From contig MFZX01000009.1 in assembly GCA_001788095.1 (NCBI GenBank), forward strand, positions 185 to 64,184: 64,000 nucleotides of DNA. The letters are read 5' to 3'. Position 1 is the stretch's first letter. Each line of letters opens with the position of its first letter. This document shows positions 1,194 to 60,892 of this stretch, one piece after another. The translations under genes and the position numbers were made by a program. The DNA is from Candidatus Roizmanbacteria bacterium RIFCSPHIGHO2_12_FULL_37_23. Its GTDB lineage: Bacteria; Patescibacteriota; Microgenomatia; UBA1406; HO2-37-13b. Below the pieces are notes generated by a model, which saw only the letters and a program-made list of their open reading frames with translations, had not been told where the DNA came from and made no database searches.

Positions 1194-1244
1194 CCTAATA
1201 CCTAATACGTAATACCTAATACGTAATACCTAATACGTAATACG
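1194..1244. repeat. tandem 14-bp repeat CCTAATACGTAATA (about 3.5 copies) in a divergent intergenic region
   Basis: Direct reading: cctaata cctaatacgtaata cctaatacgtaata cctaatacgtaatacg, ending at the first ATG of the rnj ORF. Confidence 0.9.
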
Positions 1245-1262
1245 ATGCTGTATACTAATACT

Positions 1263-2918
1263 ATGTCTAACTTCAGAGTCCGTTTTATACCCTTAGGCGG
1301 AATTGTTGGTGTTACAAAAAATATGTATGTATATGAATTATACAAGGGTGACAAACTTCAAGATATTATCATTATCGACTGTGGTATAGGTTTTCCTCGA
1401 GAACAAGAATTTGGTGTTGATCATGAAATTCCTGATATCACATATCTTCGAGACAAAACTAAGTTTATTCGTGCCGTTCTTTTTTCCCATGGCCATGAGG
1501 ATCATATAAGTGCATTACGTTTCCATTATGAGGACCTTGGCAAACCTCCTGTTTATGCTAGTAAACTCACAGCGGTGTTTGTTAAAAATAAATTTGATGA
1601 GTTCAGAATCCCAGTAAGAATAAATGATGTTGATTTTACAAAAACATATACCTTAGGTTCATTTGAAGCCAAATTTATCCGTATGACACATTCAATCCCA
1701 GACACAACACACATACTGCTTAAAAGCCCTGTTGGAGCCTTTTATCATGGAAGTGATTATAAGATAGATCTTACTCCTCCGTTTGGACCATCCCCAGATC
1801 TATACGAAATTGCAAAAGCAGGAAAAGATGGAGTTTTATGCCTCTTTTCAGATTGTTTAGGATCTGACCGTGAAGGATTTACGCTTTCAGAGAAGGTTGT
1901 TGGTAAGACGTTTGAGGATGAAATTCGTACTACAAAAGGTAAATTTATTATGACAACCTTTGCTAGTAATATCTCGCGAGTACGACAGTGTGCTGAGGCA
2001 GGAATGAAATTTAATAGAAAGATTTGCCTATTGGGAAGATCTATGAGGGAAAACTCACGAAGCGCGCGTAAAATCGGTTATTTTCCAATCCCTGAAAAGT
2101 TTATGGTAGATGAAAGACAAGTAAACAAGCTCCGACCGAATCAAATATGTATTATTGCAACAGGCTCTCAGGGGCAATTTGGATCTGCACTTTCACGACT
2201 TGCTACAGATCAGCACAAATACATTCGTATTGAAAAGGATGACAAAGTTGTTTTTTCATCAGACCCTATACCTGGGAATGAAGAAGAGGTATACGATATC
2301 ATAGAACGCTTATATGTGCTGGGGGCTGATGTCAGATATTCGGATATTCACGAACAGCTTCATGCGTCTGGTCACGGAAGTCAGGAAGATATGAAAATTC
2401 TTATACGATTACTTAATGCGCGATATGTTATTCCAATAGGAGGGACAATCCGACATCAAAGATTATATTCCCAGCTTGCGCAGACAATGGGATATAAAGA
2501 TGATCAAATTTATCTATTAAATGAGGGTGATACAGTTTGGTTTGAACAAGGGAAGGCTAAGCGAGGAGAGCAAATTAATACAAAAAATATCTATGTTGAT
2601 GCATACGGAGTCGGAGATATAGGAGATACTATTCTTCGGGACCGTATGACACTCTCTAAGGAAGGAATCGTACTTGTTATATTAAAAGTAGATTCTCATA
2701 ATCGTATTGTCGGTTTACCTGAGTTTATCTCTCGAGGATTTATTTACAGTAAAGGAAAACAAGAAATATTTAATCAAGCTGCACAAGAAATTCAAAACAT
2801 GTACAAAGACGTAAAAAAAATTCCGCTAAGAAGAGATATAATTTCCCGATTAGAAAAATACTTTGTTAAAAAGACTAATAAGGAGCCTCTCGTAAGTCTT
2901 CAGATTGTTCGAGTTTAA
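1263..2918 (+). CDS. rnj: ribonuclease J (beta-CASP metallo-beta-lactamase RNase)
   Basis: The 557-aa ORF carries the HGHEDH motif and beta-CASP layout; N-terminus is MSNFRVRFIPLGGIVGVTKNMYVYE. I prefer the ATG at 1263, which is preceded by TATACT plus 6 nt. The track start at 1245 is an alternative. Confidence 0.9.
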   Translation: MSNFRVRFIPLGGIVGVTKNMYVYELYKGDKLQDIIIIDCGIGFPREQEFGVDHEIPDITYLRDKTKFIRAVLFSHGHEDHISALRFHYEDLGKPPVYASKLTAVFVKNKFDEFRIPVRINDVDFTKTYTLGSFEAKFIRMTHSIPDTTHILLKSPVGAFYHGSDYKIDLTPPFGPSPDLYEIAKAGKDGVLCLFSDCLGSDREGFTLSEKVVGKTFEDEIRTTKGKFIMTTFASNISRVRQCAEAGMKFNRKICLLGRSMRENSRSARKIGYFPIPEKFMVDERQVNKLRPNQICIIATGSQGQFGSALSRLATDQHKYIRIEKDDKVVFSSDPIPGNEEEVYDIIERLYVLGADVRYSDIHEQLHASGHGSQEDMKILIRLLNARYVIPIGGTIRHQRLYSQLAQTMGYKDDQIYLLNEGDTVWFEQGKAKRGEQINTKNIYVDAYGVGDIGDTILRDRMTLSKEGIVLVILKVDSHNRIVGLPEFISRGFIYSKGKQEIFNQAAQEIQNMYKDVKKIPLRRDIISRLEKYFVKKTNKEPLVSLQIVRV

Positions 2919-3535
2919 AAATCTTTTCTTCCCTCCAATGATCGTTTAAGCGTCATGTAGTCAGCGTATTCAAGATCTCCTCCTATAGGAAGACCATATG
3001 CTAGACGAGTTATTTTGACATGATTCAACTCTCCGTCAAATGTATCAGTGAGTTGTTTTTTGATGTACATTGCAGTTGCTTCACCTTCAGTATTAGGATT
3101 CGTCGCAAGTATAATTTCTTGTATTTTATTCTTTTCCTTCTTTATTCGATGGATAAACTGCGGAATATAAATATCATCCGGGCCAATATAATTCAGTGGA
3201 TCGATTCGACCGTGTAAAACGTGATATACGCCTTGATAATGATGTCCAGTTTCAAAAGATAGAAGATCAAGAACGTCTTCAACAACTGCAACAACTGAAT
3301 TATCGCGTTGCGTATCCTGACATATTGAACACAACTCCGTCTCAGAAAGATGGAAACAGCGCTTGCAGTACATGAGATTTATTTTTAACTGACTGATATG
3401 TTTACTAATCTCTTCGAGTTCTTGCTGGGGCATGCGCAAGAGATAAAATCCCAGCCTCTTCGCCGTTTTAGGACCAATCCCCGGTAATTTCTCAAAAAAA
3501 TCAATAGTTTTCTGTAGGTCTTTGGGAATATTCAT
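2915..3535 (-). CDS. recR: recombination protein RecR
   Basis: HhH motif GIGPKTAKRL, C4 zinc finger CKRCFHLSETELCSIC, and a Toprim-like C-terminal half. Sits in the canonical dnaX-ybaB-recR order. Confidence 0.95.
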   Translation of the reverse strand: MNIPKDLQKTIDFFEKLPGIGPKTAKRLGFYLLRMPQQELEEISKHISQLKINLMYCKRCFHLSETELCSICQDTQRDNSVVAVVEDVLDLLSFETGHHYQGVYHVLHGRIDPLNYIGPDDIYIPQFIHRIKKEKNKIQEIILATNPNTEGEATAMYIKKQLTDTFDGELNHVKITRLAYGLPIGGDLEYADYMTLKRSLEGRKDF

Positions 3536-3540
3536 GCGCT

Positions 3541-3615
3541 TTACGTGTTACGTATTATGTATAACGTATTAAGTATTATACGTATCGTCCTAATACATCA
3601 TACCTAATACCTAGG
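3541..3615. repeat. intergenic cluster of ACGTATTA / CCTAATAC motifs, related to and partly inverted relative to the 1194..1244 repeat
   Basis: ttacgtgttacgtattatgtataacgtattaagtattatacgtatcgtcctaatacatcatacctaatacctagg. GTATTA-type copies are followed by CCTAATAC-type copies, giving an imperfect palindrome. Confidence 0.7.
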
Positions 3616-5895: not shown

Positions 5896-5926
5896 GTATT
5901 ATTTACTAATTTCTAATTCTTTTACT

Positions 5927-6262
5927 TCAACTTACAATATTGTCTATACCATGCGTTAATAGTTGCATGATAGTTTCATCAACTCCTCTATCTCTTTCTG
6001 CAGCAAGTAGTATTGCCTGTGGATAACAGATAAAGATTTCTCCAAGCAATTCATTCTCTCCATACCTAAAAGATAAAACAGGAAGAGCTTCGTTTTCACT
6101 TTTAAAATCTTGTGCAATTTTTTTCATCTTTCTCGTTCCAATAAAAACAATATTTACCACCATATCGTGGTTTACGCGTTGTCTTTGAAGGTACGATTCA
6201 GCAGCTTGCACAATGCTAGAACGGTCAATTTTATACCGTGAGGTGGTAAATACTTTCACCAT
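5927..6262 (-). CDS. YbeY-like protein, C-terminally short and lacking the HxxxHxxxxxH zinc motif
   Basis: 111 aa. It aligns by eye to the YbeY core (VNIVFIG..LPVLSFRY..LLGEIFIC...) but ends at THGIDNIVS-stop, where YbeY has HGxLHLxGYDH. Confidence 0.55.
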   Translation of the reverse strand: MVKVFTTSRYKIDRSSIVQAAESYLQRQRVNHDMVVNIVFIGTRKMKKIAQDFKSENEALPVLSFRYGENELLGEIFICYPQAILLAAERDRGVDETIMQLLTHGIDNIVS

Positions 6263-7402: not shown

Positions 7403-8650
7403 TTATGCAGAATAAAAGTCTTTTAACTTTTTTATGATCTCAGTAGCTGAGAAAAGATTGATTTTATCGTCGTCTCTCAACTTCCATTCGACATTTTTTT
7501 TTGTTTTTTCCGAAACAACAAGTCTCACGGGTGATCCAATAAGCTCAGAAGTCATAAATTTTTCTCCTGCTGAGACATCTTCCCGATCATCATATAAGAT
7601 ATCAAACCCCTCGGCTTTTAGAGTGCGATATATGAGATCAGCATATGAGGAGTCATGTTTTGAAAGATTGATCAGCTGCGCGTGAAATGGTGTTACTGAA
7701 AGAGGCCACTGAATGAGATCATCCTTATGATGAACTTCAACAATAGCACCTAGCAATCTCGTTATGCCTATACCATAACAACCCATGACAATTGGGCGGT
7801 TTTCACCATTTTTATCAACATACGTAAGTTTAAATGAATTACTAAACCGGGTATGTAAATCAAATATGTTTCCAATTTCAACAGCTTTATCTGTTTTAAC
7901 ATCGCTACTTCCGCACAATGGACATTTCTTCAGATTACCTTGAATCACTTCTTCATTTTGAGCAAAACTACACGCTCCACAGTACACAAGGTTCACCTCA
8001 CCGGCTGGTGTAAGAACATTAAATTCATGCGAGTGTTTCTTACTAAAATCCCCTCCTGATGCTTCTGTTATTTTTATATCTGTAAATCCACATGTCTGGA
8101 ATATTTTTATATACGCATCTGATACCTTCTGATAATATGCATCTAAATCCTGCTGATGTGCATGAAACGAATATAAATCTTTCATTCCAAATTCTCTTCC
8201 TCTTAAAATTCCTGACTTAGGTCGGGGCTCATCTCTAAATTTTGTGCCAATTTGGTAAAGTGCCAGAGGTAAATCTCTGTAACTTTTTATATATTTTTTT
8301 GCAAGAGGAGTTACGATTTCTTCATGTGAAGCTCCGAGAGCATATTCATAACTGTGTCGACTATTGACTTTGAATAATATGTCTACACTGTTCCATCTTT
8401 CGGTTTGTTCCCAAAGTGATTTAGGATGAAGCGAGGGCATACGTATTTCTAGAGCTCCAATTTCATTCATCTCATTTCGGATAATCGCTTCTATCTTTTT
8501 CAACACTCGATCGCCAGCGGGAAGTATAGTGAAAATACCACTTGCAACTTGATCAATAAATCCCGCTCTTGTGAGTAATTCATGATTTACTGATTCAAAC
8601 TCGCGTGCTGTATCTTTAATTGATTTGATATAGTTTTGAGAAATACGCAT
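7403..8650 (-). CDS. proS: proline--tRNA ligase, short bacterial-type form without the INS editing domain
   Basis: 415 aa with class II motifs (FRDEPRPKSGILRGREFGMKD) and a C-terminal anticodon-binding domain. The INS position holds only a short segment with CGAC...CPLC. Confidence 0.9.
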   Translation of the reverse strand: MRISQNYIKSIKDTAREFESVNHELLTRAGFIDQVASGIFTILPAGDRVLKKIEAIIRNEMNEIGALEIRMPSLHPKSLWEQTERWNSVDILFKVNSRHSYEYALGASHEEIVTPLAKKYIKSYRDLPLALYQIGTKFRDEPRPKSGILRGREFGMKDLYSFHAHQQDLDAYYQKVSDAYIKIFQTCGFTDIKITEASGGDFSKKHSHEFNVLTPAGEVNLVYCGACSFAQNEEVIQGNLKKCPLCGSSDVKTDKAVEIGNIFDLHTRFSNSFKLTYVDKNGENRPIVMGCYGIGITRLLGAIVEVHHKDDLIQWPLSVTPFHAQLINLSKHDSSYADLIYRTLKAEGFDILYDDREDVSAGEKFMTSELIGSPVRLVVSEKTKKNVEWKLRDDDKINLFSATEIIKKLKDFYSA

Positions 8651-25170: not shown

Positions 25171-26687
25171 AAAGGAGGTGATTCACCCGCTCCTTCCAGA
25201 ACGGGTACCTTGTTACGACTTAGTCCCCATCGCCGGTCTTACCCTCCCCCGCAAAAGCAGGGTTCAGGTACTCCCGACTTTGTTGGCTTGACGGGCAGTG
25301 TGTGCAAGAGACAAGAACGTATTCACCGCGGCATGGCTGATCCGCGATTACTACTAATTCCACGTTCATGAGGTCGAGTTTCAGACCTCAATCCCCACTG
25401 AGAGATGGTTTATAGGATTAGCTCCGCGTTACCGTTTAGCAACCCATTGTCCATCTCATTGTAACATGTGTGTCGCCCAGGGCATAAGCGTCATGCTGAC
25501 TTGACGTCTGCCTCTCCTTCCTCCCCGCCATCGGCGGGGCAGTCTCCCGAGATACGTGTAACTCGGGACAAGGGTTACGTTCGTTGTCCCACTTAAGGGC
25601 ACTCCTCACGGAACGAACTGACGACAGCCATGCAACAGCTGTCCTAACGTCCTTGCGGAAAATCCTACTTTCATAAGATCGCCGTTAGGATGTCAAGCCC
25701 TGGTGAGGTGCTACGGTTTGTCTCGAATTAAACCACATGTTCCACTAGTTGTGTGTCTCCCCGCCAATTCCTTTGAGTTTCAACCTTGCGGTCGTACTCC
25801 CCAGGCGGCTCGCTTAACGCGTTAGCTTCGCCACACCCTCTCCCAAAATAAATCGGGAGAAAATGCAACTAGCGAGCATCGTTTAGGGCTAGGACTACCC
25901 GGGTCTCTAATCCGGTTCGCTCCCCTAGCTTTCGTCTTTCAGCGTCAGTTATTTTCCAGAAATCTGCCTTCGCCATTGGTGTTCTTGACGATATCAACGC
26001 ATTTCACTACTCCTCCGTCAATTCCGATTTCCCTAAAAATAACTCTATCCCGATAGTTTTTTCACCTGTTTCAAGGTTGAGCCTTGATCTTTAAACGAAA
26101 ACTTATCGGGACGCCTACAGACCCTTTACGCCCAGTCACACCGGATAACGCTCGTGGCCCCCGTATCACCGACGCTTCTGGCACGAAGTTAGCGGCCACT
26201 TTCTAGTAGGGTACCGTCAATCCGGCATTCGCCGAGACTTCTTCCCCTACCACAGTAGTTTACATCCCAAGAGATTTCTTCCTACACGCGGTGTCGCGTG
26301 GTCAGGCTTTCGCCCATTGCCAACGATTCTTGATTGCTGCCACCCGTAGGTGTGGAGCCCGTGTCTCAGTGCTCCTCTGGCTGATCACCCTCATGAGGTC
26401 AGCTACCCGTCATAGGCTTGGTAGGCTATTACCCCACCAACTACCTGATAGGCCGCAGGCCCCTCTTACGGCGAGCAGTTATGCCCTTTCCAAGTATCTT
26501 GCGACACCTGGGTATAGAGTATTACCCCCGGTTTCCCGAAGCTATTCTCTACCGAAAGGTAGGTTCCTACGTGTTACTCAGCCGTCCGCCACTACCAGAC
26601 AGTGCAAGCACTGTCAGGACGTTCGACTTGCATATCTTAAACACACCGCTAGCGTTCATCCTGAGCCAGGATCAAACTCTTAAATAA
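25171..26687 (-). rRNA. rrs: 16S ribosomal RNA (about 1.5 kb, no large insertion)
   Basis: The reverse complement starts ...AGAGTTTGATCCTGGCTCAG (26680 downward) and ends AAGTCGTAACAAGGTACCC...GAATCACCTCCTTT at 25171. The GGACTACCCGGGTCTCTAAT (806 region) and other universal blocks are visible. Ends are approximate to about 5 nt. Confidence 0.95.
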
Positions 26688-51601: not shown

Positions 51602-54157
51602 ATGCAAAACCCATCAAGACGACTACGCAGGATGAAAAGCGGGTTATTCAAGGAGAAGGTAGTCTCCTATGCGCTTAAGAGTGCTTTGATAGGAGTTGTG
51701 GCCTTTTTTCTATTAGGAATGGCTGCTTTTGCATATTTTTCAAGAGACTTACCAGAGCCAGGAAAAATTCAACGAAGAGAAGGATTCTCAACCGTTTTTT
51801 ACGATCGGAATGACAAAGTCTTATTCGAAATGTTTGAAGATAAAAATAGAATTCCCGTTGATATAGAAGATGTCCCAGAAGATCTTAAAAATGCAACGGT
51901 TGCTGTAGAAGATAAAACTTTTTTTAAACACAAAGGTTTCTCTACCCCAGGAATCGCCCGCGCAATGCTCACCATAGTATTGAGGGGACGACTTGCAGGT
52001 GGCTCAACACTAACTCAACAACTTGTAAAAAATGTTTTATTAACTCAAGAGAGAACAGTTACGAGGAAAATAAAAGAATTGGTCCTAGCTGTAGCTATTG
52101 AACGTAAATTTTCAAAGGATGAAATACTTGAAATGTATCTCAATGAGTCTCCCTATGGTGGTACATTTTGGGGTGTACAATCTGCCTCAAAAGGATATTT
52201 TGACAAGGATGTTAAAGATTTGAAGCTTGTTGAATCTGCAATTATCGCTGGTTTGCCGCAACGGCCTTCGGTTTATAATCCGGTGACTGGACAACCCGAT
52301 GCTTACAAGACTCGTGCAAAAGATGTGTTACGAAGAATGCGTGAGGATGAATATATTACACAAGCGCAGGAACAACAAGCTCTTAAGGATCTCCAGAAAG
52401 TAACCTTTGAAAAAGCTCATCTTGCTATAGAAGCACCGCATTTTGTATTTTATGTGCGAGAGTTAGTGGTAAAACAATTTGGGGAGAAGATACTTGATCA
52501 GGGAATTGAGATAAAAACAACACTTGATTCTGATGTTCAAAAAGAAGCTCAGAAAATTGTTGCAGCAGAGATCAAAAAAACCAAAGCTCTTCATGCTACA
52601 AACGGTTCAATGGTAGTGCTGGATTCACAAACAGGTGAGATACTAGCTATGGTTGGATCTTATGATTATAACGATGAAGAATTTGGTCGTTATAATACTG
52701 CAGTTGCCCACAGACAACCTGGCTCTGCTGTTAAGCCTATCACCTATGCTGTTGCATTTGAGCAAGGCTATACACCTTCTTCTGTAGTTATGGATATTCC
52801 TACAGAATTTCCAGACCAAGGGGGAAAGACATATAATCCAATCAATTACGATGGCAAATTCAGAGGTCCTTTGCAATATCGCTTTGCACTTGCAAATTCA
52901 ATTAATGTCGCAGCGGTTAAAGTACTTGCAAATGTGGGTATAAAAAATTTTCTACAAAAAGCATATGATATGGGAATGAACGATTTTGAACCTACTGATG
53001 AGAATCTTAAGCGATTTGGTCTTTCTATTACATTAGGCGGTGGTGAAACAACTTTACTTGATTTAACATCCGCGTATTCGTCTTTCGCCCGAGGAGGAAC
53101 ATACATAGAGCCAAGTTCGATTCTTGAAATAAAAAATCATAAAAACAAAACTATTTTTAAAGCAAAAAAACCATCAAGTAAAAATGTTTTATCTCAAGAA
53201 GTCTCTTTTTTAATATCGCATATTTTATCGGATAATAATGCCAGAGCTGATGCTTTTGGAACAAATAGCTACCTTAATATTCCCGGTAAAACAGTCGCAG
53301 TAAAAACAGGAACTACTAATGATAAACGTGATAACTGGACAGTCGGATACACTAATGACGTAACCACTGGAGTTTGGGTAGGAAATAACGACAATTCTCC
53401 TATGAATCCAGAAATAGCCTCAGGACTTACAGGAGCATCAAGTATTTGGCATAAAGCAATGCGAGAGTTTCTTAAGAAATATAAAGATGGTATCATAGAA
53501 AAACCAAGTAATGTAGAAGCTCTTCAAATAGATGCATTTTTAGGTGGTTTACCAAGAGAAGGACAGCCTATACGATCTGAATACTTTATTAAGGGGAGTG
53601 AACCAACTGACATTTCTCCATTCTATAAAAAACTTAAGATATCAAAAAATACAGGTAAGTTAGCCAATGAAATCGAGATCAAAGCAGGCGAATTCGAAGA
53701 AAAGGATTTTATTGTTATTGCTGAAAGCGACCCTATTTCTACTGATGGAAGAAACAGATGGCAAGAAGCGATTATTGCTTGGACAACACAACAGGCAAGC
53801 GACATATTTAGACCGCCAACAGAGCTTTCAGATACGAAGAGTGATGAAATTATCATAAGCTTTAAAGAACCGGAAGATAGCAAAAGAATTAATTCAAATA
53901 GCATTCAGGTGAAGGCAAAAATAACATCACTTCATAGCATTAAGAAGGTGGAAATTCTCGTTAATGACAATCTTGTTCAGCAATATGATGGAGATAAACG
54001 AGAGATTGATGAGCCGCTTAATTTGCCTGATGGAATATATGAAATTAAAATCCGTGCAGAAAATGTTAAAGGTACAGTTAAGGACAATCGTGTACGTATT
54101 GGTATAAACAAGGAGTGGAACGAATTGGGTTCTGAACCTACTCCAACGCCTGAATAA
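51602..54157 (+). CDS. bifunctional class A penicillin-binding protein (PBP1A-type glycosyltransferase/transpeptidase) with a C-terminal Ig-like domain
   Basis: GT51 motifs EDKTFFKHKGF and GGSTLTQQLVKN. Transpeptidase motifs SAVKP (SxxK), SIN (SxN) and KTGTT. N-terminal TM anchor. Confidence 0.9.
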   Translation: MQNPSRRLRRMKSGLFKEKVVSYALKSALIGVVAFFLLGMAAFAYFSRDLPEPGKIQRREGFSTVFYDRNDKVLFEMFEDKNRIPVDIEDVPEDLKNATVAVEDKTFFKHKGFSTPGIARAMLTIVLRGRLAGGSTLTQQLVKNVLLTQERTVTRKIKELVLAVAIERKFSKDEILEMYLNESPYGGTFWGVQSASKGYFDKDVKDLKLVESAIIAGLPQRPSVYNPVTGQPDAYKTRAKDVLRRMREDEYITQAQEQQALKDLQKVTFEKAHLAIEAPHFVFYVRELVVKQFGEKILDQGIEIKTTLDSDVQKEAQKIVAAEIKKTKALHATNGSMVVLDSQTGEILAMVGSYDYNDEEFGRYNTAVAHRQPGSAVKPITYAVAFEQGYTPSSVVMDIPTEFPDQGGKTYNPINYDGKFRGPLQYRFALANSINVAAVKVLANVGIKNFLQKAYDMGMNDFEPTDENLKRFGLSITLGGGETTLLDLTSAYSSFARGGTYIEPSSILEIKNHKNKTIFKAKKPSSKNVLSQEVSFLISHILSDNNARADAFGTNSYLNIPGKTVAVKTGTTNDKRDNWTVGYTNDVTTGVWVGNNDNSPMNPEIASGLTGASSIWHKAMREFLKKYKDGIIEKPSNVEALQIDAFLGGLPREGQPIRSEYFIKGSEPTDISPFYKKLKISKNTGKLANEIEIKAGEFEEKDFIVIAESDPISTDGRNRWQEAIIAWTTQQASDIFRPPTELSDTKSDEIIISFKEPEDSKRINSNSIQVKAKITSLHSIKKVEILVNDNLVQQYDGDKREIDEPLNLPDGIYEIKIRAENVKGTVKDNRVRIGINKEWNELGSEPTPTPE

Positions 54158-56135
54158 TTTTCTTTAATTCAGATTTTGCTTCTTCTTCAGTAATATTTCT
54201 GTCTTTTCGTTCAAAACTTAAGCGGAGAGTAATCTTATTTTCAAATGTATCAAGGAGAGCTATGTCAGTAATATATTTTGATGTTGCGCGAATGATTTTT
54301 ACTACCGAATCATATGGCTGTTTTTTTATCAATGGTACCGTCATATCAAGTTTTACTATTGCATAAGGATTGATCGGTTGATATGTAGAGACCGTTTGAG
54401 AGGCAGAAACAAGATTTTTCATTGTAAGCCCAGCTAAATAAAGAGGGTCTTTTAGCCCATGTCTCTCTTGGTAAGATGGTGCAATTTGTCCAATCCAACC
54501 AAAGATCGCTCCATCAGGTGTTAGGAGCTCGGCTTGGGTAGTATGCGAAAGATATGGAACTTGAGATGTTGGTTGAAATGATACAGTGATGTTACATTCT
54601 TGACATAATGCTTCAAGAATTCCTTTAATATCAGCATAAGATGTATTAGTAACTAAACCAAGTTGTTTTTCCTCATCTGGTAGGTCGTTTTTTTTAGGAT
54701 GATATACATTTGCAATTTCGAAAAAACGTAGTTGTTTTCTCTTACCTTGATTATCCTTGATATTTTGAATAAGCGAAGAAGTAAGCGAGGTGCGTAAGTA
54801 CTCTATTTCTTGAGAAATGGTATTTTTAATATGTAAATGCGCATGCACATCAAGACCAAGTGCTAAAATTTGGGCTTTTGAAATCATCGAGTAGTTATAG
54901 ACCTCATGAAGACCTAGATGTTTTAATAAATATTTGATTTTATTTTCCATTCGTAGGAGATTGTTTATATCCTGCGGTTGTTCAGCAAGGGCTGTTTGCT
55001 GGACCTTTGAAGGGATAAGATGGTATCCATATATTCGGGCGATTTCCTCAACAATATCTGCTTGAATGGAGATGTCATCGACTCGGTATGACGGAGGTGA
55101 CACTCGTATCTTATTGGTTGTACCAGAGGTTTTAAAGTTGAGGCGGTTAAGTATTGAGATGATATTTTTGTACCCAACTGGTGCTCCGATATCGCGTTGG
55201 ATATTCGAAAAACTGATGCTGAGATTTTTCTTTTGCGCCTTCTGAGGATAAGTGTCCAGAACCTTAGATGCTATCGTAGCTTCTGCATGTGTGCCAAGAA
55301 GCTCTGTACCATATACAAGTGTTGTCTCAGTCCTTTCTGGATCAAGTCCTTTTTCAAAATAAGTAACACTAGGGGTCCGTTGTCCAGTAAGCATCGAGGT
55401 CCTTCTGACAAATTTTTTGTTGAAGGATGGAACAAAAAGCAGAATATTTTTTGTCTGATCGGTGACTTCAGAATTTTGAGCACCCATGATTCCAGCTAAG
55501 TCAATCAGTCTGCCCTGAACGTCTTTGATGATGATATCATTTCCTGGAAGTATAATTTTTTTTCCATCAAGCGTGGTTATAGTTTCATTCTTCACACTCT
55601 TGGTAATAGCTATCCCAGATGCACCAAGTCGGTCTAAATCAAATACATGCACCGGCTGGCCAAAAGCAATTCGAATATAGTTTGAAATATCTACAACATT
55701 ATTTATCGGGCGTTCATCGCACAGAGAAAGCCTTTCTTGTATATACGCTGGAGATGGCTTAATAGTGATGTGAGTAAGTGCAACAGCAGTTATTCGACGT
55801 GCTAATGTTTTATCAGCGAGATGAATGATAGGTGTTGGTGCTTTACGACGTATATCTAGATAACGCAGTCTATATTTTTTAAAAGGGTCGATTTTTAAGC
55901 GGGCCTTTTTCTTGAATTGAGGCAATATAGCATAACACTCCTGTGCAATGCCGTATACAGAAGCGGTATCAATTCTGTTTGATGTAATTTCAATATCAAA
56001 CACGTAGTCGTCCCCCATTTTGATTACAGATTCAACAGAGGGCCCACAGAGCGAAAGATATTTTTGGATTTCAAAGGGATCAGCGTTTGTATCAAGATAT
56101 TCCAAAAGCCATTTATATGTAATTTTGATGTTCAT
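54138..56135 (-). CDS. pheT: phenylalanine--tRNA ligase beta subunit (short form, no N-terminal tRNA-binding/OB domain)
   Basis: 665 aa with B3/4, B5 and FDX-ACB-like C-terminal layout. Directly downstream of pheS. Confidence 0.85.
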   Translation of the reverse strand: MNIKITYKWLLEYLDTNADPFEIQKYLSLCGPSVESVIKMGDDYVFDIEITSNRIDTASVYGIAQECYAILPQFKKKARLKIDPFKKYRLRYLDIRRKAPTPIIHLADKTLARRITAVALTHITIKPSPAYIQERLSLCDERPINNVVDISNYIRIAFGQPVHVFDLDRLGASGIAITKSVKNETITTLDGKKIILPGNDIIIKDVQGRLIDLAGIMGAQNSEVTDQTKNILLFVPSFNKKFVRRTSMLTGQRTPSVTYFEKGLDPERTETTLVYGTELLGTHAEATIASKVLDTYPQKAQKKNLSISFSNIQRDIGAPVGYKNIISILNRLNFKTSGTTNKIRVSPPSYRVDDISIQADIVEEIARIYGYHLIPSKVQQTALAEQPQDINNLLRMENKIKYLLKHLGLHEVYNYSMISKAQILALGLDVHAHLHIKNTISQEIEYLRTSLTSSLIQNIKDNQGKRKQLRFFEIANVYHPKKNDLPDEEKQLGLVTNTSYADIKGILEALCQECNITVSFQPTSQVPYLSHTTQAELLTPDGAIFGWIGQIAPSYQERHGLKDPLYLAGLTMKNLVSASQTVSTYQPINPYAIVKLDMTVPLIKKQPYDSVVKIIRATSKYITDIALLDTFENKITLRLSFERKDRNITEEEAKSELKKIIQALE

Positions 56136-56138
56136 ATT

Positions 56139-57188
56139 TTAAAATTGTTCTAAAAAGCGTATATCTCCACTGTATAGAATTCTAATATCATCTACGTTGA
56201 GTCCTTGTTTCATCATAAAAACCCGTTCGATACCAAAACCAAAAGCCCATCCGCTATATTTTTTGGGGTCTATTCTGCCCTCTCTTAAAACATTTGGGTG
56301 CACCATTCCTGCCCCACCAAGTTCTAACCAACCAGACTTGCACACTTTACACTTAAGGTTTTTTACTTTTCCTGTTCCTTGGCAGATATCACAGGTAACA
56401 TCGACCTCGAACGAAGGTTCCGTAAATTGAAAGTGAAAAGGACGAAGACGAATCTCTCGATTGTTCCCAAAAAAAGATCGAGCGAAATATTCGATCGTAC
56501 CCTTAAGATTTGTTATATTAATACCTGAGTCTATGCAAAGCCCTTCAAATTGATGAAACATTGGTACGTGAGTTGCATCCCAATTGGGACGATATGTTTT
56601 AGCAATATTAATCATCTTGATAGGAGGTTTCTTACTTCTTATCATTTCTCTGACCTGACCTGATGATGTATGAGGAGTAAGTACCATTTTTCCGTATTCT
56701 TTATGAGGTGGAAAATCGATAAAAAAGGTTTCGAAATCATCTCTCGCTGGGTGGTCTTTCGGCATATTAAGACTCTCAAACGAAAAATATTCCCATTCCA
56801 CCTCGCGGTATGACATTCGAATGAATCCTAGGCGTTCAAATATTTGAGAAATTTCTTCTATTGCGTACGTAACGATGTGCAAACTACCATGTGGATATGG
56901 TAGTCCGGGAAGAGTTGGATCGATATAATGCTCACGGTCTTTTTTTTGGAGTATTATCCCTCTTTTTAGGTCAATAGATTTCTGGATGAAAAATTTTAGT
57001 GTATTTACAGATTCTCCAAAAATTTTTCTTTTTTCTTTAGGGACATCTTTTATTGATAAAAGAACTTCATTGACACGCCCTTTCCTTCCTAGATAAGCAA
57101 TGTTTAGAAGATTAAGTTCTTCGATAGATGTAATCTTTTTAAGATCTTTTTCGAAGTTTTGTTTTACATGTGCTATGTCGGAGTTCAT
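56139..57188 (-). CDS. pheS: phenylalanine--tRNA ligase alpha subunit
   Basis: 349 aa with class II motifs (HPARD, FRPxxxDATHxPxFHQxEG, GxGxGxER) and a Zn knuckle CDICQGTGKVKNLKCKVC, as in Bacillus-type PheS. Confidence 0.95.
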   Translation of the reverse strand: MNSDIAHVKQNFEKDLKKITSIEELNLLNIAYLGRKGRVNEVLLSIKDVPKEKRKIFGESVNTLKFFIQKSIDLKRGIILQKKDREHYIDPTLPGLPYPHGSLHIVTYAIEEISQIFERLGFIRMSYREVEWEYFSFESLNMPKDHPARDDFETFFIDFPPHKEYGKMVLTPHTSSGQVREMIRSKKPPIKMINIAKTYRPNWDATHVPMFHQFEGLCIDSGINITNLKGTIEYFARSFFGNNREIRLRPFHFQFTEPSFEVDVTCDICQGTGKVKNLKCKVCKSGWLELGGAGMVHPNVLREGRIDPKKYSGWAFGFGIERVFMMKQGLNVDDIRILYSGDIRFLEQF

Positions 57189-57199
57189 ACTCGCGGAAC

Positions 57200-57550
57200 T
57201 TAAGTCTTGTTGACTTCATCAACAATTTGTTTAAAGATCTTAGGTTTCTTGACAGCAAGCAATGCAAGTATTTTTCTATCAAGCTCGATATGGTGGTCCT
57301 TCATGTGTTTTATAAAAACACTATATGTTGTTCCAAGATCTCTTAATGATGCATTCATACGTGTAATCCAAAGGCTTCTAAAATCTCTCTTTCGAAGTTT
57401 TCTACCCATGAATGCGTACTCACCAGCGTGTAGGACGGCCTCTTGAGCGGTTTTGAAAAGTCGTCTTCGCGCCATTCTATATCCCTTTGCTTGTTTAAGG
57501 ACTTTTTTATGGCGTCTTCGCGTTGTTATACCAGCTTTAATTCGTACCAT
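57200..57550 (-). CDS. rplT: 50S ribosomal protein L20
   Basis: MVRIKAGITTRRRHKKVLKQAKGYR... Confidence 0.95.
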   Translation of the reverse strand: MVRIKAGITTRRRHKKVLKQAKGYRMARRRLFKTAQEAVLHAGEYAFMGRKLRKRDFRSLWITRMNASLRDLGTTYSVFIKHMKDHHIELDRKILALLAVKKPKIFKQIVDEVNKT

Positions 57551-57553
57551 ATT

Positions 57554-57751
57554 TTACACTCCCAGCATTTTTTTAATCTTTGCTTTATATCTACCTGTTA
57601 GTTTTCTAGGAACGTTGAGGCTTCGTAGCTGTTTTTTTGACTTATTGCTTCTTAGATGACGAATTCCATGTCCTCGGTGAAGTATCTTTCCTGACTTAGT
57701 AACTTTAAATCGTTTAAGAGCTGCTTTTTTTGTTTTCATTTTTTGTTTCAT
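57554..57751 (-). CDS. rpmI: 50S ribosomal protein L35
   Basis: MKTKKAALKRFKVTKSGKILHRGHGIRH... Confidence 0.9.
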   Translation of the reverse strand: MKQKMKTKKAALKRFKVTKSGKILHRGHGIRHLRSNKSKKQLRSLNVPRKLTGRYKAKIKKMLGV

Positions 57752-57753
57752 AG

Positions 57754-58287
57754 TTATTTTCTTCGAGAGATAACTGCAATGAGCACTTTTCCTTGAAAAC
57801 GTGGTTCTGATGCTGTTTGTACGTTTTCTAAAGATTGAATAAATCTATTCATTAGTTCAAATGCCATATCTCGTTTACCTAACTCTCGACCAAAAAGAGG
57901 AAGTTTGAGTCTCACTTGATGACCGTCTTGTATAAATTCCTGAGCTCTTTTTTCAAATCTTCCGAGGTCATTCTCACTGATAAAAAGTGAAATTTGCAGA
58001 TCCTTCATCTGACTCTTTTTTATTCCCTTCTTACCTTCTCTTAATTTTTTTTCCTCCTGATATTGATGTTTATGTACATCAATCGCTTTTACAACAGGAG
58101 GTGTAATACCAGGGGCAACTAAAACCAAATCCACTCCTCGCTCCCGAGCATAAGTGAATGCTTTGTCTCGAGGTAATACTCCTACCTGTTTTCCGTCTGC
58201 ATCTATAACTCGAAACTCGTCCCCACGAATTCTTTCATTAGTAATGTATGAAACTCTCGTCTTTTGGCTTCTAAATTTTCTTTCCAA
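57754..58287 (-). CDS. infC: translation initiation factor IF-3
   Basis: ITNERIRGDEFRVIDADGKQVGVL N-domain plus C-domain. The track start is a TTG that overlaps the thrS stop by 17 nt. A non-ATG start fits known infC autoregulation, but the exact start is uncertain. Confidence 0.85.
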   Translation of the reverse strand: MERKFRSQKTRVSYITNERIRGDEFRVIDADGKQVGVLPRDKAFTYARERGVDLVLVAPGITPPVVKAIDVHKHQYQEEKKLREGKKGIKKSQMKDLQISLFISENDLGRFEKRAQEFIQDGHQVRLKLPLFGRELGKRDMAFELMNRFIQSLENVQTASEPRFQGKVLIAVISRRK

Positions 58288-60022
58288 TGTCTTGTTTAAG
58301 TTGTTTTATGAACTCGTAAATATTTTGAAGACCAAGATCTTTTCCATCCCGAGTTCGTACCGAGATAGAATCACCTTTCTCCGCTTCCTTGTGGCCTATT
58401 ATACACATGTAAGGAACCTTTTTCAATGTCCACTCACGGATTTTTGCAGGCAATGTTTTAGCTTCAGTATCAAGTTCGACACGAATATCAGCCTCATTAA
58501 ATAATTCGAACATTTTTCTGGCTACATCGTTTATTTTATCACTCACCGGTAACACGGCTACCTGGATCGGAGCAAGCCAAAGGGGAAAGTTACCCGCTGT
58601 ATGTTCAATATAAACTGCTAAAAAGCGCTCAAGCGATCCGACAAGTGCGTAATGGATCATAACTGGTATTTTTTCCACGCCGTCCTTATCAGTATATTTT
58701 AGGCTGAATCTGCTTGGTTGCACAAAATCGAGTTGAGCTGTTGCAATTTGCCATTCACGACCTAATGCATCAAGAATCATAAAGTCTATCTTTGGTCCGT
58801 AAAATGCAGCCTCACCTGGAGCTTCGTAATATTCTAGCTTGTTTTGTTGAGCTATTTTTTGTATGATTTCTTGTGCACTTTCCCAAAGCTTAGGATCACC
58901 AAGATATTTATCTGGTTCGTGGGGATCTCTGTATGAGAGACGTACCCTGAACTTCATATCTAAAGCTTGATAGAATTCTTTTGAGATCTCAATGAGCATT
59001 TGGAATATGTCAGAAATTTGCTCTGGAGTAGAAAAAATATGGCTATCATCTTGCGTTACCGATCGGACTCGGCTAAGGCCTAATAATTCCCCAGCCTTTT
59101 CATCTCTATAAATAGTCGTTGTTTCAAGGTATTTAATTGGAAGGTCTTTGTAGCTTCGTGGACGACTTGCATAAATTTGTTGGTGATGTGGGCAATTCAT
59201 TGGTTTCATAACGAGCTCATCATTGGTCTCCTGGCTTTTCACCAGAAAAAGCTCGTCGCCAAACTTATCCCAATGCCCTGATGTCTTATATAAGTCATTT
59301 TTCGTAATATGTGGTATCCAAACTTTCTGAAATCCTCTTTTCTGACGCAATCCTTGTGAGAACGCATTGAGCTCTTCTCGAAGCACTGTGCCCTTAGGGG
59401 TGAAGAGTGGAAGACCTCTGCCAACGAGATCCGAGAAATAAAAGAGATCGAGATCCCTACCAAGCTTTCTATGGTCTCTTTTCTTTGCTTCCTCAAGGAG
59501 TGTAAGATGTTTGTCGAGCTCATCCTTTGACTCAAATGCTGTTCCATAAATTCTTGTCAGCATTTTATTTTTCTCATTACCCTTCCAATACGCTCCGGCT
59601 ACAGATAAGAGTTTAAAATATTTCAATTCTTCTTTTGGTTTTTTGACATGACCACCTCGACACAGATCAATAAAACTTCCTGATGTTTGGAGTTTAACTT
59701 GCTCATCCCGAGCAAGAATATCATCGACGATCTCTCTTTTATATTGATTCCAATGGAAAACTTCTTTTGCTTTTTCAGGTGTAACAATTTCTTCATTCAT
59801 TGAATCCCATGATTCTAGGATTTTTTTCATTTTTTCTTCAATACGAGGTAAATCGTCCTCAGATATTACATGATCACCAAGATCAAAGTCTTGATAGAAA
59901 CCATCTTCTATGGCTGGTCCGATTGCGTTTTGTGCTCCCGGATAAAGATCAATAACGGCAGCAGCTACTAAATGAGCGCATGAATGTCGAAGATTGTTAA
60001 GATATTCTTTATCGTTGTTCAT
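58271..60022 (-). CDS. thrS: threonine--tRNA ligase (no N-terminal TGS domain)
   Basis: 583 aa, starting in the editing/SAD domain (RHSCAHLVAAAV). Class II core and a C-terminal anticodon-binding domain are present. Confidence 0.95.
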   Translation of the reverse strand: MNNDKEYLNNLRHSCAHLVAAAVIDLYPGAQNAIGPAIEDGFYQDFDLGDHVISEDDLPRIEEKMKKILESWDSMNEEIVTPEKAKEVFHWNQYKREIVDDILARDEQVKLQTSGSFIDLCRGGHVKKPKEELKYFKLLSVAGAYWKGNEKNKMLTRIYGTAFESKDELDKHLTLLEEAKKRDHRKLGRDLDLFYFSDLVGRGLPLFTPKGTVLREELNAFSQGLRQKRGFQKVWIPHITKNDLYKTSGHWDKFGDELFLVKSQETNDELVMKPMNCPHHQQIYASRPRSYKDLPIKYLETTTIYRDEKAGELLGLSRVRSVTQDDSHIFSTPEQISDIFQMLIEISKEFYQALDMKFRVRLSYRDPHEPDKYLGDPKLWESAQEIIQKIAQQNKLEYYEAPGEAAFYGPKIDFMILDALGREWQIATAQLDFVQPSRFSLKYTDKDGVEKIPVMIHYALVGSLERFLAVYIEHTAGNFPLWLAPIQVAVLPVSDKINDVARKMFELFNEADIRVELDTEAKTLPAKIREWTLKKVPYMCIIGHKEAEKGDSISVRTRDGKDLGLQNIYEFIKQLKQDIGKKI

Positions 60023-60042
60023 TATATCTTACTATTATAAAC

Positions 60043-60065
60043 AAAAAACCCCGGCAAGCGGGGTT
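60043..60065 (-). terminator. intrinsic terminator in the thrS leader (AACCCCG-CTTGC-CGGGGTT plus U-tract)
   Basis: Minus strand: 5' arm at 60065..60059, loop at 60058..60054, 3' arm at 60053..60047, then TTTTGTTT. It ends about 17 nt before the thrS ATG. Confidence 0.7.
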
Positions 60066-60091
60066 ATATATTGCATATTACAACCACCGCC

Positions 60092-60139
60092 CTACGGACA
60101 GCTTGTGGTGGTAGTTGTAAAGCAATTACGCGTATTCAT
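60092..60139 (-). CDS. candidate Thr-rich leader peptide of thrS (MNTRNCFTTTTTSCP); an in-frame upstream ATG at 60172 would give a 26-aa version
   Basis: Hand translation of the minus strand: ATG AAT ACG CGT AAT TGC TTT ACA ACT ACC ACC ACA AGC TGT CCG TAG. The Thr codons lie inside the 5' arm of a hairpin that competes with the antiterminator/terminator pair. Confidence 0.55.
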   Translation of the reverse strand: MNTRNCFTTTTTSCP

Positions 60140-60200
60140 TATTCCATTAGTCGGTATCAATAATAAAATCATGTTTATATATAGTCTTACATTATGTTTG

Positions 60201-60274
60201 TGGGCGAAGAGGGACTTGAACCCCCGACCTCTGCAATGTCAATGCAGCGCTCTGGCCAGCTGAGCTATTCGCCC
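60201..60274 (-). tRNA. tRNA-Val (anticodon GAC)
   Basis: Reverse complement GGGCGAATAGCTCAGCTGGCCAGAGCGCTGCATTGACATTGCAGAGGTCGGGGGTTCAAGTCCCTCTTCGCCCA. Anticodon stem is CTGCA/TGCAG and the loop is TTGACAT. No encoded CCA. Confidence 0.9.
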
Positions 60275-60331
60275 AATGCAATATGATTAGACTAGGGAAT
60301 ATTATAGCAAAGAGATGAGATAGACGAAAGA

Positions 60332-60892
60332 CTACATTACATTTCGTGCAGCTTGAAGTTCCTGAGACATGGAGTACTGTGTTCCTTTCTTTTTAGATCG
60401 GACAACAAATGCAGAGCCTCTTTTAGCTTTTTTTGATTGCATGGCCATAAGCCATGTTTTTGCTTCGCCAACCTTTACTTTAAGTCCTTGGAGAAACGAA
60501 AGAATTAATTCCAGATATCGAATATGATAGACTCCTGGCCTTTCAGGCAGGGATTGAAGAGTGATTTTTTCAATATTTTCTACCTCGGAAGTGAGACTGT
60601 CACTTCTACTTTTAATGTCTTTTACTTCAATTCTGATTTGCTCAATGAGTTGTTGCATCTCTTTGATTTTCTGATGTCGCTCTTTGGTTTCGTAGTGTTC
60701 GTGGAAAGTAAAAATCGTTTTAAACTCTGGATTAGCTTGTGCTTCCTTTTGACTGTGAGATCGATATTCCTGTTCGATGATACTTTTTTGCAAATCAAAG
60801 TCAAATATATCAGATGAAGGTGCTGACTGAACCTGAGATTCAATAGGATTTTTATATTTTAATCCCTTTTTTACATTCTGTTGGATACTCAT
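60332..60892 (-). CDS. hypothetical coiled-coil protein
   Basis: 186-aa ORF with a central heptad-like region (IKEMQQLIEQIRIEVKDIKSR) and a basic C-terminus. No motif recognised. Confidence 0.5.
   Translation of the reverse strand: MSIQQNVKKGLKYKNPIESQVQSAPSSDIFDFDLQKSIIEQEYRSHSQKEAQANPEFKTIFTFHEHYETKERHQKIKEMQQLIEQIRIEVKDIKSRSDSLTSEVENIEKITLQSLPERPGVYHIRYLELILSFLQGLKVKVGEAKTWLMAMQSKKAKRGSAFVVRSKKKGTQYSMSQELQAARNVM

Follow-up and report, generated by a model that had tools for sequence, protein, structure and literature searches.

A probable threonine-sensing leader-peptide attenuator upstream of thrS in a Candidatus Roizmanbacteria genome

How is thrS, the gene for threonine--tRNA ligase (ThrRS), controlled in bacteria of the Candidate Phyla Radiation (CPR, or Patescibacteria)? 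These organisms are uncultured and have reduced genomes, and to our knowledge almost nothing is known of their gene regulation. Elsewhere, control of thrS relies on a T-box (Firmicutes) or on a mimic of the tRNA anticodon arm (Escherichia coli). The question is raised by a 64,000-nucleotide (nt) stretch of DNA (the window; positions 185 to 64,184 of contig MFZX01000009.1) from Candidatus Roizmanbacteria bacterium RIFCSPHIGHO2_12_FULL_37_23, in which the interval between a tRNA-Val gene and thrS had been predicted from the letters alone to hold a Thr-rich leader open reading frame (ORF), competing hairpins and a terminator. The analysis reported here makes it likely that this element is a Thr-sensing, ribosome-mediated (leader-peptide) transcription attenuator of thrS, which probably also tunes read-through into infC-rpmI-rplT-pheS-pheT. 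Coordinates of the thrS region of the window refer to the minus strand.

The leader ORF ('thrL'), read directly from the sequence, extends from an ATG at 60139 to a TAG at 60094..60092 and encodes MNTRNCFTTTTTSCP. Six of its 15 codons specify Thr, and five of these form an uninterrupted run (ACA ACT ACC ACC ACA, 60118..60104) that would provide the regulatory codons. An alternative in-frame ATG at 60172 would yield a 26-residue peptide, MILLLIPTNGIMNTRNCFTTTTTSCP. Both the ORF and this upstream ATG lie where the original prediction had placed them, and the translation start remains uncertain between 60139 and 60172. On either strand of the window, this is the sole short ORF with at least four Thr codons in its richest six-codon stretch. 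Clustered codons for the cognate amino acid ahead of a related gene define the attenuator class, and the leader has this arrangement, with a Thr run ahead of thrS.

Three alternative helices surround the end of this ORF. Segment 1 (TTACAACTACCACC, 60120..60107), which holds most of the Thr run, forms the 5′ strand of hairpin 1:2, and segment 2 (GGCGGTGGTTGTAA, 60091..60078), which begins right after the leader stop codon, forms its 3′ strand. The pairing comprises 12 Watson-Crick pairs, one G-U pair and one mismatch, as checked by hand, and the hairpin alone has a free energy of −17.3 kcal/mol. The intrinsic terminator 3:4 (AACCCCG-CUUGC-CGGGGUU, 60065..60047) has a stem of 7 bp and −9.9 kcal/mol. 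The bases after its hairpin are TTTTGTTT, and its U-tract, UUUUGUUUAU, occupies 60046..60037, with two further U inside the stem. No other terminator-like site was found on the minus strand between 56000 and 64000. Hairpin 1:2, with the stop codon just before segment 2, had been proposed beforehand and is present in the minimum-free-energy fold; the proposed terminator and U-tract were likewise recovered by the terminator scan and the folds. The proposed 2:3 pairing exists and contains the expected bulged U, but its length had been understated. Constrained folds pair GGGCGG-U-GGUUGUA (60092..60079), the antiterminator 5′ strand made of segment 2 plus G 60092, with UAUAACCCCGCUU (60068..60056), giving 13 bp instead of 8 bp. 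With its single bulged U, this antiterminator reaches −14.9 kcal/mol and takes up the entire 5′ arm of the terminator. In its minimum-free-energy state, the free RNA combines hairpin 1:2 with the terminator. The 177-nt region as a whole folds at −47.5 kcal/mol, compared with −34.1 ± 3.6 kcal/mol in dinucleotide shuffles (z = −3.69), and none of the 200 shuffles folded as well.

Stalling was simulated by folding 60172..60040 with a 30-nt stretch set as unpairable to represent the ribosome footprint. When the A site was placed on codon 1, 3 or 5 of the Thr run, the best fold contained the 2:3 helix and no terminator. When the footprint was placed at the stop codon, segment 2 was covered and the terminator returned, and in the RNA without a ribosome hairpins 1:2 (−17.3 kcal/mol) and 3:4 (−9.9 kcal/mol) formed. 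The 1:2 / 2:3 / 3:4 logic of the original prediction is thus reproduced, with the antiterminator in the stalled-ribosome folds and the terminator in the stop-codon and ribosome-free folds. A codon-by-codon scan of stall positions gave mntrnCFTTTTTScp*, in which upper case marks loss of the terminator. Since all five codons of the run lose it, the antitermination window is centred on the Thr run, as is the behaviour of trp-type attenuators. In these thermodynamic models, the placement of the terminator, an antiterminator that excludes it and the geometry of the stall and stop positions are all those of the attenuator class.

AT-rich sequence often contains short ORFs and hairpins, and the number of terminator-like sites in the promoter and terminator scan was close to that in shuffled sequence; the element might therefore be a coincidence, an ordinary terminator after tRNA-Val joined by a chance ORF and hairpin in AT-rich intergenic DNA. 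The fold z-score and the uniqueness of the Thr-rich ORF in the window argue against this explanation, and so does the comparison with related thrS loci. The sample comprised 80 loci from GTDB species representatives, 80 from JGI metagenomes and six obtained via a protein database. In the GTDB and JGI loci, ThrRS is 50–68% identical to the window's protein, the nearest in those scans being 66–68% identical. A leader was scored when a short ORF with at least four Thr in six codons lay no more than 350 nt upstream of thrS. Such an ORF occurs in 23 of 152 loci, compared with 0.73% per 350 nt at other positions of these loci, an approximately 20-fold enrichment with a binomial P of 3e-23, for which it should be borne in mind that some loci are related and hence not fully independent. 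After removal of duplicates, 23 of 141 distinct upstream regions carry the ORF, and three more carry a weaker one with three Thr. The loci are not assembly duplicates, because their ThrRS proteins are 51–69% identical to that of the window. When all loci were scanned without bias for a terminator preceded by a short ORF in which four of six residues are identical, Thr was the top class, with 22 hits, 19 of them within about 300 nt upstream of thrS.

The encoded peptides, among them MKSQIALQTTTTTS, MITQNIFITTVTTTPQ, MAFVTTTTTTP, MKVKSFVTTTTTTTFPV, MITFFSITTTTFS, MLSQLNTTTTTTRLMRVVV and MKKLVILTTTTLFS, are alike in the Thr run only, which comprises 4–7 Thr. Start codon, ACN run and stop codon always share one reading frame, and the stop codon lies just before or within segment 2. 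Relatives with 99–100% ThrRS identity are uninformative because their leaders are identical, and in one relative at 84% the contig stops 25 nt before thrS. The nearest informative relatives are two Roizmanbacteria-like contigs with 68–69% ThrRS identity and the synteny tig-DUF5660-tRNA-Val-thrS. Both retain the whole device with entirely different helix sequences. Conservation in orthologous leaders had been set beforehand as a test of the idea, and Thr-run ORFs together with the three-helix architecture indeed recur in divergent Patescibacteria.

Hairpin, antiterminator and terminator accompany nearly all of the Thr-run ORFs. In the 19 loci examined in detail, two hairpins come after the Thr run, one whose loop contains or adjoins the stop codon and then a GC-rich one with a U-tract; the terminators were entered by hand from the sequences. 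The terminator arms vary from locus to locus (AACCCCG, AACCTCC, CCCGC, ACCCCTC, AATCTCTCC, AAAGCTCCCC, AACCCGC and AACTCTCC). Segments 2, 3 and 4 differ between loci, and in each locus segment 2 is complementary to its own terminator arm. Swapping upstream regions among 16 non-redundant loci weakened the 2:3 duplex from a mean of −12.3 kcal/mol in the native combinations to −9.6 kcal/mol (permutation p = 1.5e-4), and the 2:3 duplex of the window ranks 1 of 16 against swapped upstream regions. The swap test for 1:2 in the same 16 loci gave p = 0.013, a weaker signal that is expected because every segment 1 consists of ACN repeats. In 15 of the 19 loci, the fold energy of the stalled state was reached by at most 10% of shuffles of the segment 2 region. 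The stall scan across the 19 loci was antiterminating at 81 of 99 Thr codons and at 90 of 210 other codons (Fisher p = 5e-11); at the final codons and at the stop codon, the terminator was restored in all loci. The enrichment upstream of thrS, the significant swap and stall-position tests, and the retention of the architecture by distant relatives with entirely different helices leave coincidence extremely improbable, the comparative statistics excluding chance.

If the element acts as an attenuator, its RNA has to be made and its ORF translated. An extended −10 box, TGCTATAAT, lies at 60309..60301 upstream of tRNA-Val, where it probably serves as the promoter, and the scan found no terminator-like site between tRNA-Val and the leader. 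Because the leader also has no recognisable −10 box or Shine-Dalgarno site of its own, its RNA most likely arises by co-transcription with tRNA-Val. The leaders of other loci point to a second arrangement. Under a criterion of at least five of six matches to TATAAT, 13 of 23 loci have a −10 box that ends 4–9 nt ahead of the leader ATG, compared with 3.6% of all ATGs, a geometry that suggests leaderless mRNAs for the leader ORFs. In L046, L047 and L144, the leader ATG stands 5 nt after the 3′ end of tRNA-Val, so that 3′ processing of the tRNA could produce a nearly leaderless leader mRNA. These two arrangements, and the constant frame of the Thr run relative to start and stop codons, point indirectly to translation of the leader ORFs. 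The Thr codons of the leaders favour ACC and ACU, which make up 64% of them compared with 40% in the thrS genes (p = 2e-6); this bias may stem from pairing with GGU in segment 2 or from the sensing of one isoacceptor.

The setting for translation in the window genome is somewhat unusual. Shine-Dalgarno sequences are not enriched (8 of 60 genes, compared with 9.6% at random positions), and the 16S rRNA (25171..26687, minus strand; 3′ end at about 25171..25185) retains the anti-Shine-Dalgarno sequence CACCUCCUUUCU. A TATAAT-like box stands 4–11 nt before the start codon in 15 of the 60 genes, compared with 6.7% at random, which suggests that leaderless mRNAs, or mRNAs with very short leaders, are widespread in this genome. 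A read-through transcript should nevertheless express thrS, because the operon-internal pheS and pheT also lack Shine-Dalgarno sites and yet must be translated.

We propose the following mechanism. Transcription would start upstream, most likely at the tRNA-Val promoter TGCTATAAT, and the RNA would run through tRNA-Val into the leader ORF of 15 or 26 codons, which would then be translated. When Thr-tRNA is plentiful, the ribosome would reach the TAG at 60094..60092 and cover segment 2, so that 3:4 would form and transcription would terminate at 60046..60037. When Thr-tRNA is scarce, the ribosome would stall on the ACN codons within segment 1, 2:3 would form and transcription would enter thrS. 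An untranslated leader would form hairpin 1:2 and the terminator. The structures themselves, their mutual exclusivity, the position logic and the conservation are established by computation; that the leader is translated in step with transcription, that read-through responds to Thr-tRNA and that the promoters are active is what we infer.

The serious rival explanation is a self-contained unit, in which leader and terminator form a small RNA, a micro-peptide gene or the end of the tRNA-Val unit, and thrS is transcribed essentially only from a proximal promoter. The original prediction had itself cautioned that a promoter-like TATAAT follows the terminator. This box is present at 60039..60034, with 11 nt between it and the thrS ATG, and most related loci likewise have a −10-like box between terminator and thrS. 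As a candidate proximal promoter (P2), it could yield a thrS mRNA with a very short leader. A −10-like box precedes thrS in 37 of 156 related loci, compared with 3.6% of all ATGs; the boxes are often of the extended form TGnTAnnnT, 6–8 nt before the ATG, and occur in many loci without a leader as well as in those with one. The enrichment of start-proximal −10-like boxes in the window genome (15 of 60 genes) is in keeping with this rival, and released attenuator RNAs and leader peptides are reported to be capable of acting in trans in other bacteria (rnTrpL, peTrpL; PMC6614838, PMC7298713). It is very probable from these patterns that thrS can be transcribed from its own proximal promoter.

Other observations join these in weighing against the attenuator. 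In 11 of the 23 leader-bearing loci, the −10 box lies 4–9 nt before the thrS ATG, and in other leader-bearing loci, the window included, it lies slightly further upstream; thrS may accordingly be transcribed largely independently of the leader. Neither leader ATG of the window is preceded by a −10 box or a clear Shine-Dalgarno sequence. The element is confined to about 16–18% of related thrS loci, and no leader was recognised in 70 of 141. For six loci, the free RNA reaches its minimum free energy with the antiterminator instead of the terminator. The stall simulations describe equilibrium thermodynamics with a fixed, assumed footprint and contain no co-transcriptional kinetics. Finally, an alignment of 18 leaders by MAFFT gave no consensus structure in RNAalifold, because the helices are out of register in the alignment; the structural support is therefore carried by the alignment-free swap-permutation and shuffle tests and not by column-wise covariation.

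Against these points stands the specificity of the element. A plain terminator would need neither a Thr run nor a locus-specific antiterminator over its 5′ arm, the element is tied to the Thr-related genes thrS and thrC, and beyond the Thr run the peptides have nothing in common. A promoter downstream of the terminator leaves read-through possible, and operon-internal genes are translated without Shine-Dalgarno sites. We therefore consider a wholly self-contained unit improbable. Since a promoter box behind the terminator is general, the attenuator probably acts in addition to a basal promoter, modulating expression, and is not the sole route to thrS. In the proposed mechanism, the TATAAT at 60039..60034 would probably supply a basal level of ThrRS, an essential enzyme, and the attenuator would add an inducible share. 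A basal promoter combined with inducible read-through is the most economical reading, and the relative weight of the two routes is its main uncertainty.

The attenuator also has to be distinguished from a switch in which the ACN repeats and hairpins are recognised not by the ribosome but by another factor, for instance uncharged tRNA-Thr, as in a T-box, or ThrRS itself, as in the E. coli operator. Both kinds of sensor are known for thrS (the Firmicutes T-box and the E. coli anticodon-arm mimic), a T-box-like UGGAACC bulge occurs in related thrS loci of the Saccharibacteria type, and in the window CGU happens to occur in the hairpin 1:2 loop. The T-box leaders of Bacillus subtilis thrS and thrZ share with the window the gene, the tRNA-Thr charging signal and the opposition of antiterminator and terminator; they differ in binding uncharged tRNA directly, with no need for translation, and the window has neither a T-box motif nor an Rfam match. 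The T-box model (RF00230) gave no match at E ≤ 10 in 59700..60600, and the antiterminator has a single bulged U, not the 7-nt UGGN bulge. A permissive Rfam scan of the same interval returned the tRNA only, with Thr_leader and Leu_leader far below threshold, and the scan of the whole window returned only 16S rRNA and tRNAs.

The E. coli thrS operator is similar in exerting autogenous, Thr-specific control of thrS through a 5′ structure. It acts on translation initiation, overlaps the ribosome binding site and has no leader ORF or terminator, whereas the last hairpin base in the window is 60047, which leaves 25 nt to the ATG, and a U-tract comes next. Because the hairpins stay at least 25 nt away from the thrS start codon on its upstream side, with no overlap, they cannot be a translational operator of the E. 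coli type; mimicry of this kind was rejected, the loops also varying between loci. The absence of T-box and other family matches (the best relevant one, Thr_leader, scored 14.6 bits, E = 8), the lone bulged U, the unconserved loops and an ACN run that is always in frame with a start codon, often at leaderless-promoter distance, and with a stop codon near segment 2 make a switch read by a non-ribosome factor very unlikely.

Among the closest described systems is the leader-peptide attenuator of E. coli pheM-pheST. It too precedes a synthetase gene, uses cognate codons and follows the 1:2 / 2:3 / 3:4 logic, and it shares the conserved neighbourhood thrS-infC-rpmI-rplT-pheST. The differences are that the window has Thr codons and thrS, that the sequences are unrelated and that pheS of the window has no leader of its own. 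In addition, the leaders described here are apparently leaderless or follow a tRNA instead of being led by a Shine-Dalgarno sequence, and a promoter-like box stands behind the terminator. The thrL leader of Gammaproteobacteria (Rfam RF00506) likewise has a short ORF with a Thr run, alternative hairpins, a terminator and sensing of Thr-tRNA by stalling. That defined family controls thrABC biosynthesis with both Thr and Ile codons, whereas a synthetase gene is controlled here, and the window element is not a member, its 14.6 bits (E = 8) comparing with a gathering score of 55.

For thrS itself, the precedent found in the searched literature is weak and consists of the Streptomyces 'thrL-thrS' pair only. 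In Streptomyces lividans, a leaderless short 'thrL' ORF has been proposed to attenuate thrS, and alaS, trpS and leuS have similar leaders (PMC8079986). The 'thrL' peptide, MKRVRPFLETTPGFVPAR, contains two Thr only, and its authors report no clear intrinsic terminator (PMC8079986). The elements described here differ in their runs of 4–7 Thr, canonical terminator and antiterminator, and belong to another phylum with no sequence similarity. Leader peptides preceding hisS paralogues in Bacillus provide a further synthetase precedent (PMC2965389). The full-text literature that was searched contained no description of attenuators or leader peptides in CPR bacteria, a search that may miss comparative genomics in subscription journals. 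The doubt voiced at the outset about matching a described Thr leader on thrS was thus reasonable, with Streptomyces 'thrL' alone found and nothing for CPR bacteria. The element appears to be a known kind of regulator that is undescribed for thrS in the CPR. As the mechanism is textbook, the finding extends the range of attenuation and not the concept.

Leaders of the same design also precede other genes in the related loci. In L082, a Thr leader at 103-150 precedes a threonine-synthase-like gene (thrC) with thrS next, and lies 1.35 kb upstream of thrS. In L020, a Thr leader at 833-883 lies 2.1 kb upstream of thrS, with a 336-residue unknown protein and an M20-type peptidase encoded between them. 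Both have an antiterminator and a terminator. Phe-rich leaders followed by intrinsic terminators were found before pheS in L120 (4441-4482, MKLFTFTGFFFRI), where the arrangement is pheM-like, before a DAHP-synthase-like gene in L004 (5871-5933, MIYKVKTGFYFTFFASQTGR) and before a chorismate-mutase-like gene in L017 (about 5899-5952, MKSTNKKSFGFFFYFTP). The thrS case gains credibility because leader-peptide attenuation seems to be in general use in these bacteria.

A different kind of leader was observed at thrS of the Saccharibacteria type. In 48 of 141 distinct loci, a structured leader of about 200 nt takes the place of the Thr ORF, as in L030 (about 2750-3000) and L034 (about 1450-1700). It has an antiterminator-like helix with a UGGAACC bulge that fits the T-box UGGN, a loop containing ACC, and a terminator, and a strong Shine-Dalgarno sequence stands before thrS in these loci. 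The Rfam T-box model did not match these leaders even at E ≤ 10; judged by their structural features, they may represent a divergent T-box class. In a further group, L036, L039, L044 and L062 (labelled Dojkabacteria or Patescibacteria BroJett037), Thr-run leaders lie about 65–165 nt upstream of thrS and end in ...TTP-stop, with a small CCCC-loop-GGGG hairpin spanning the stop codon. No U-tract terminator or antiterminator was recognisable in these four, and their mechanism may differ, perhaps being Rho-dependent or translational.

Should the attenuator operate as proposed, a conserved stalling device would imply that tRNA-Thr charging is monitored and that translation is coupled to transcription in CPR bacteria. 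It would also imply that an essential synthetase, and possibly IF3, L35, L20 and PheRS, are matched to amino-acid supply, which fits organisms that import most amino acids. Across CPR lineages, the occurrence of a leader peptide or a T-box-like RNA on thrS looks like a clean exchange of sensors at one locus. A wider reading, which we advance tentatively and hold to be somewhat short of probable, is that leader-peptide attenuation is a lineage-wide system in Microgenomates-type Patescibacteria, acting on thrS, pheS and the few amino-acid pathway genes that remain, in a role equivalent to that of the T-box, with leaders that are leaderless or follow tRNA-Val and with a nested promoter. If true, it would fill the place occupied by T-box leaders in Saccharibacteria and Firmicutes, and would operate where the anti-Shine-Dalgarno sequence is kept but Shine-Dalgarno sites go unused and where a second, leaderless promoter lies right behind the terminator. 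It would then be the first evidence for physical transcription-translation coupling in CPR bacteria and a natural case in which 70S-type leaderless initiation drives attenuation. Being short and self-contained, the element lends itself to study in vitro or in a surrogate host. It also provides a signature by which small ORFs and regulatory RNAs could be annotated in metagenome-assembled genomes.

The gene context is as originally described. tRNA-Val (anticodon GAC) occupies 60274..60200 according to ARAGORN and is matched by the Rfam tRNA model at 70.1 bits. Its position directly ahead of the thrS leader is conserved, being shared by tRNA-Val(GAC) of L046 (2779-2852), L047, L086, L144, L165 and L167. 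The thrS gene (58271..60022, ATG at 60022) encodes 583 residues, matches TIGR00418 at 628 bits and yields a product identical to OGK33643.1 of Candidatus Roizmanbacteria (Microgenomates group, CPR). It is followed by infC, rpmI, rplT, pheS and pheT (54138..58287, NCBIfam matches). Within thrS-infC-rpmI-rplT-pheS-pheT, intergenic gaps measure 2–11 nt or the genes overlap, and the five downstream genes may share the thrS transcript. The promoter scan also found a strong promoter-like site at 58426..58398 (TTGAAA, 17 nt, TATAAT; 11 of 12 matches), within the 3′ end of thrS. The infC start, at 58287, follows about 110 nt downstream, so infC and the later genes may own a promoter independent of the attenuator. 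Neither pheS, which starts 11 nt after rplT, nor the operon-internal proS (7403..8650) has a leader in the window.

ThrRS of the window begins at the tRNA_SAD editing-domain motif (HSCAHL, residues 13-18), and the only domains recorded for it are PF07973, PF00587 and PF03129. From this start and domain content, the 583-residue protein lacks the N-terminal TGS domain that is present in the E. coli type. Elsewhere in the window, tandem units of about 14 nt (taatacgtaatacc) occupy intergenic DNA at about 1200..1244 on the plus strand and about 3536..3580 on the minus strand, just upstream of an RNase J gene (1245..2918) and of a divergent gene (2915..3535), respectively.

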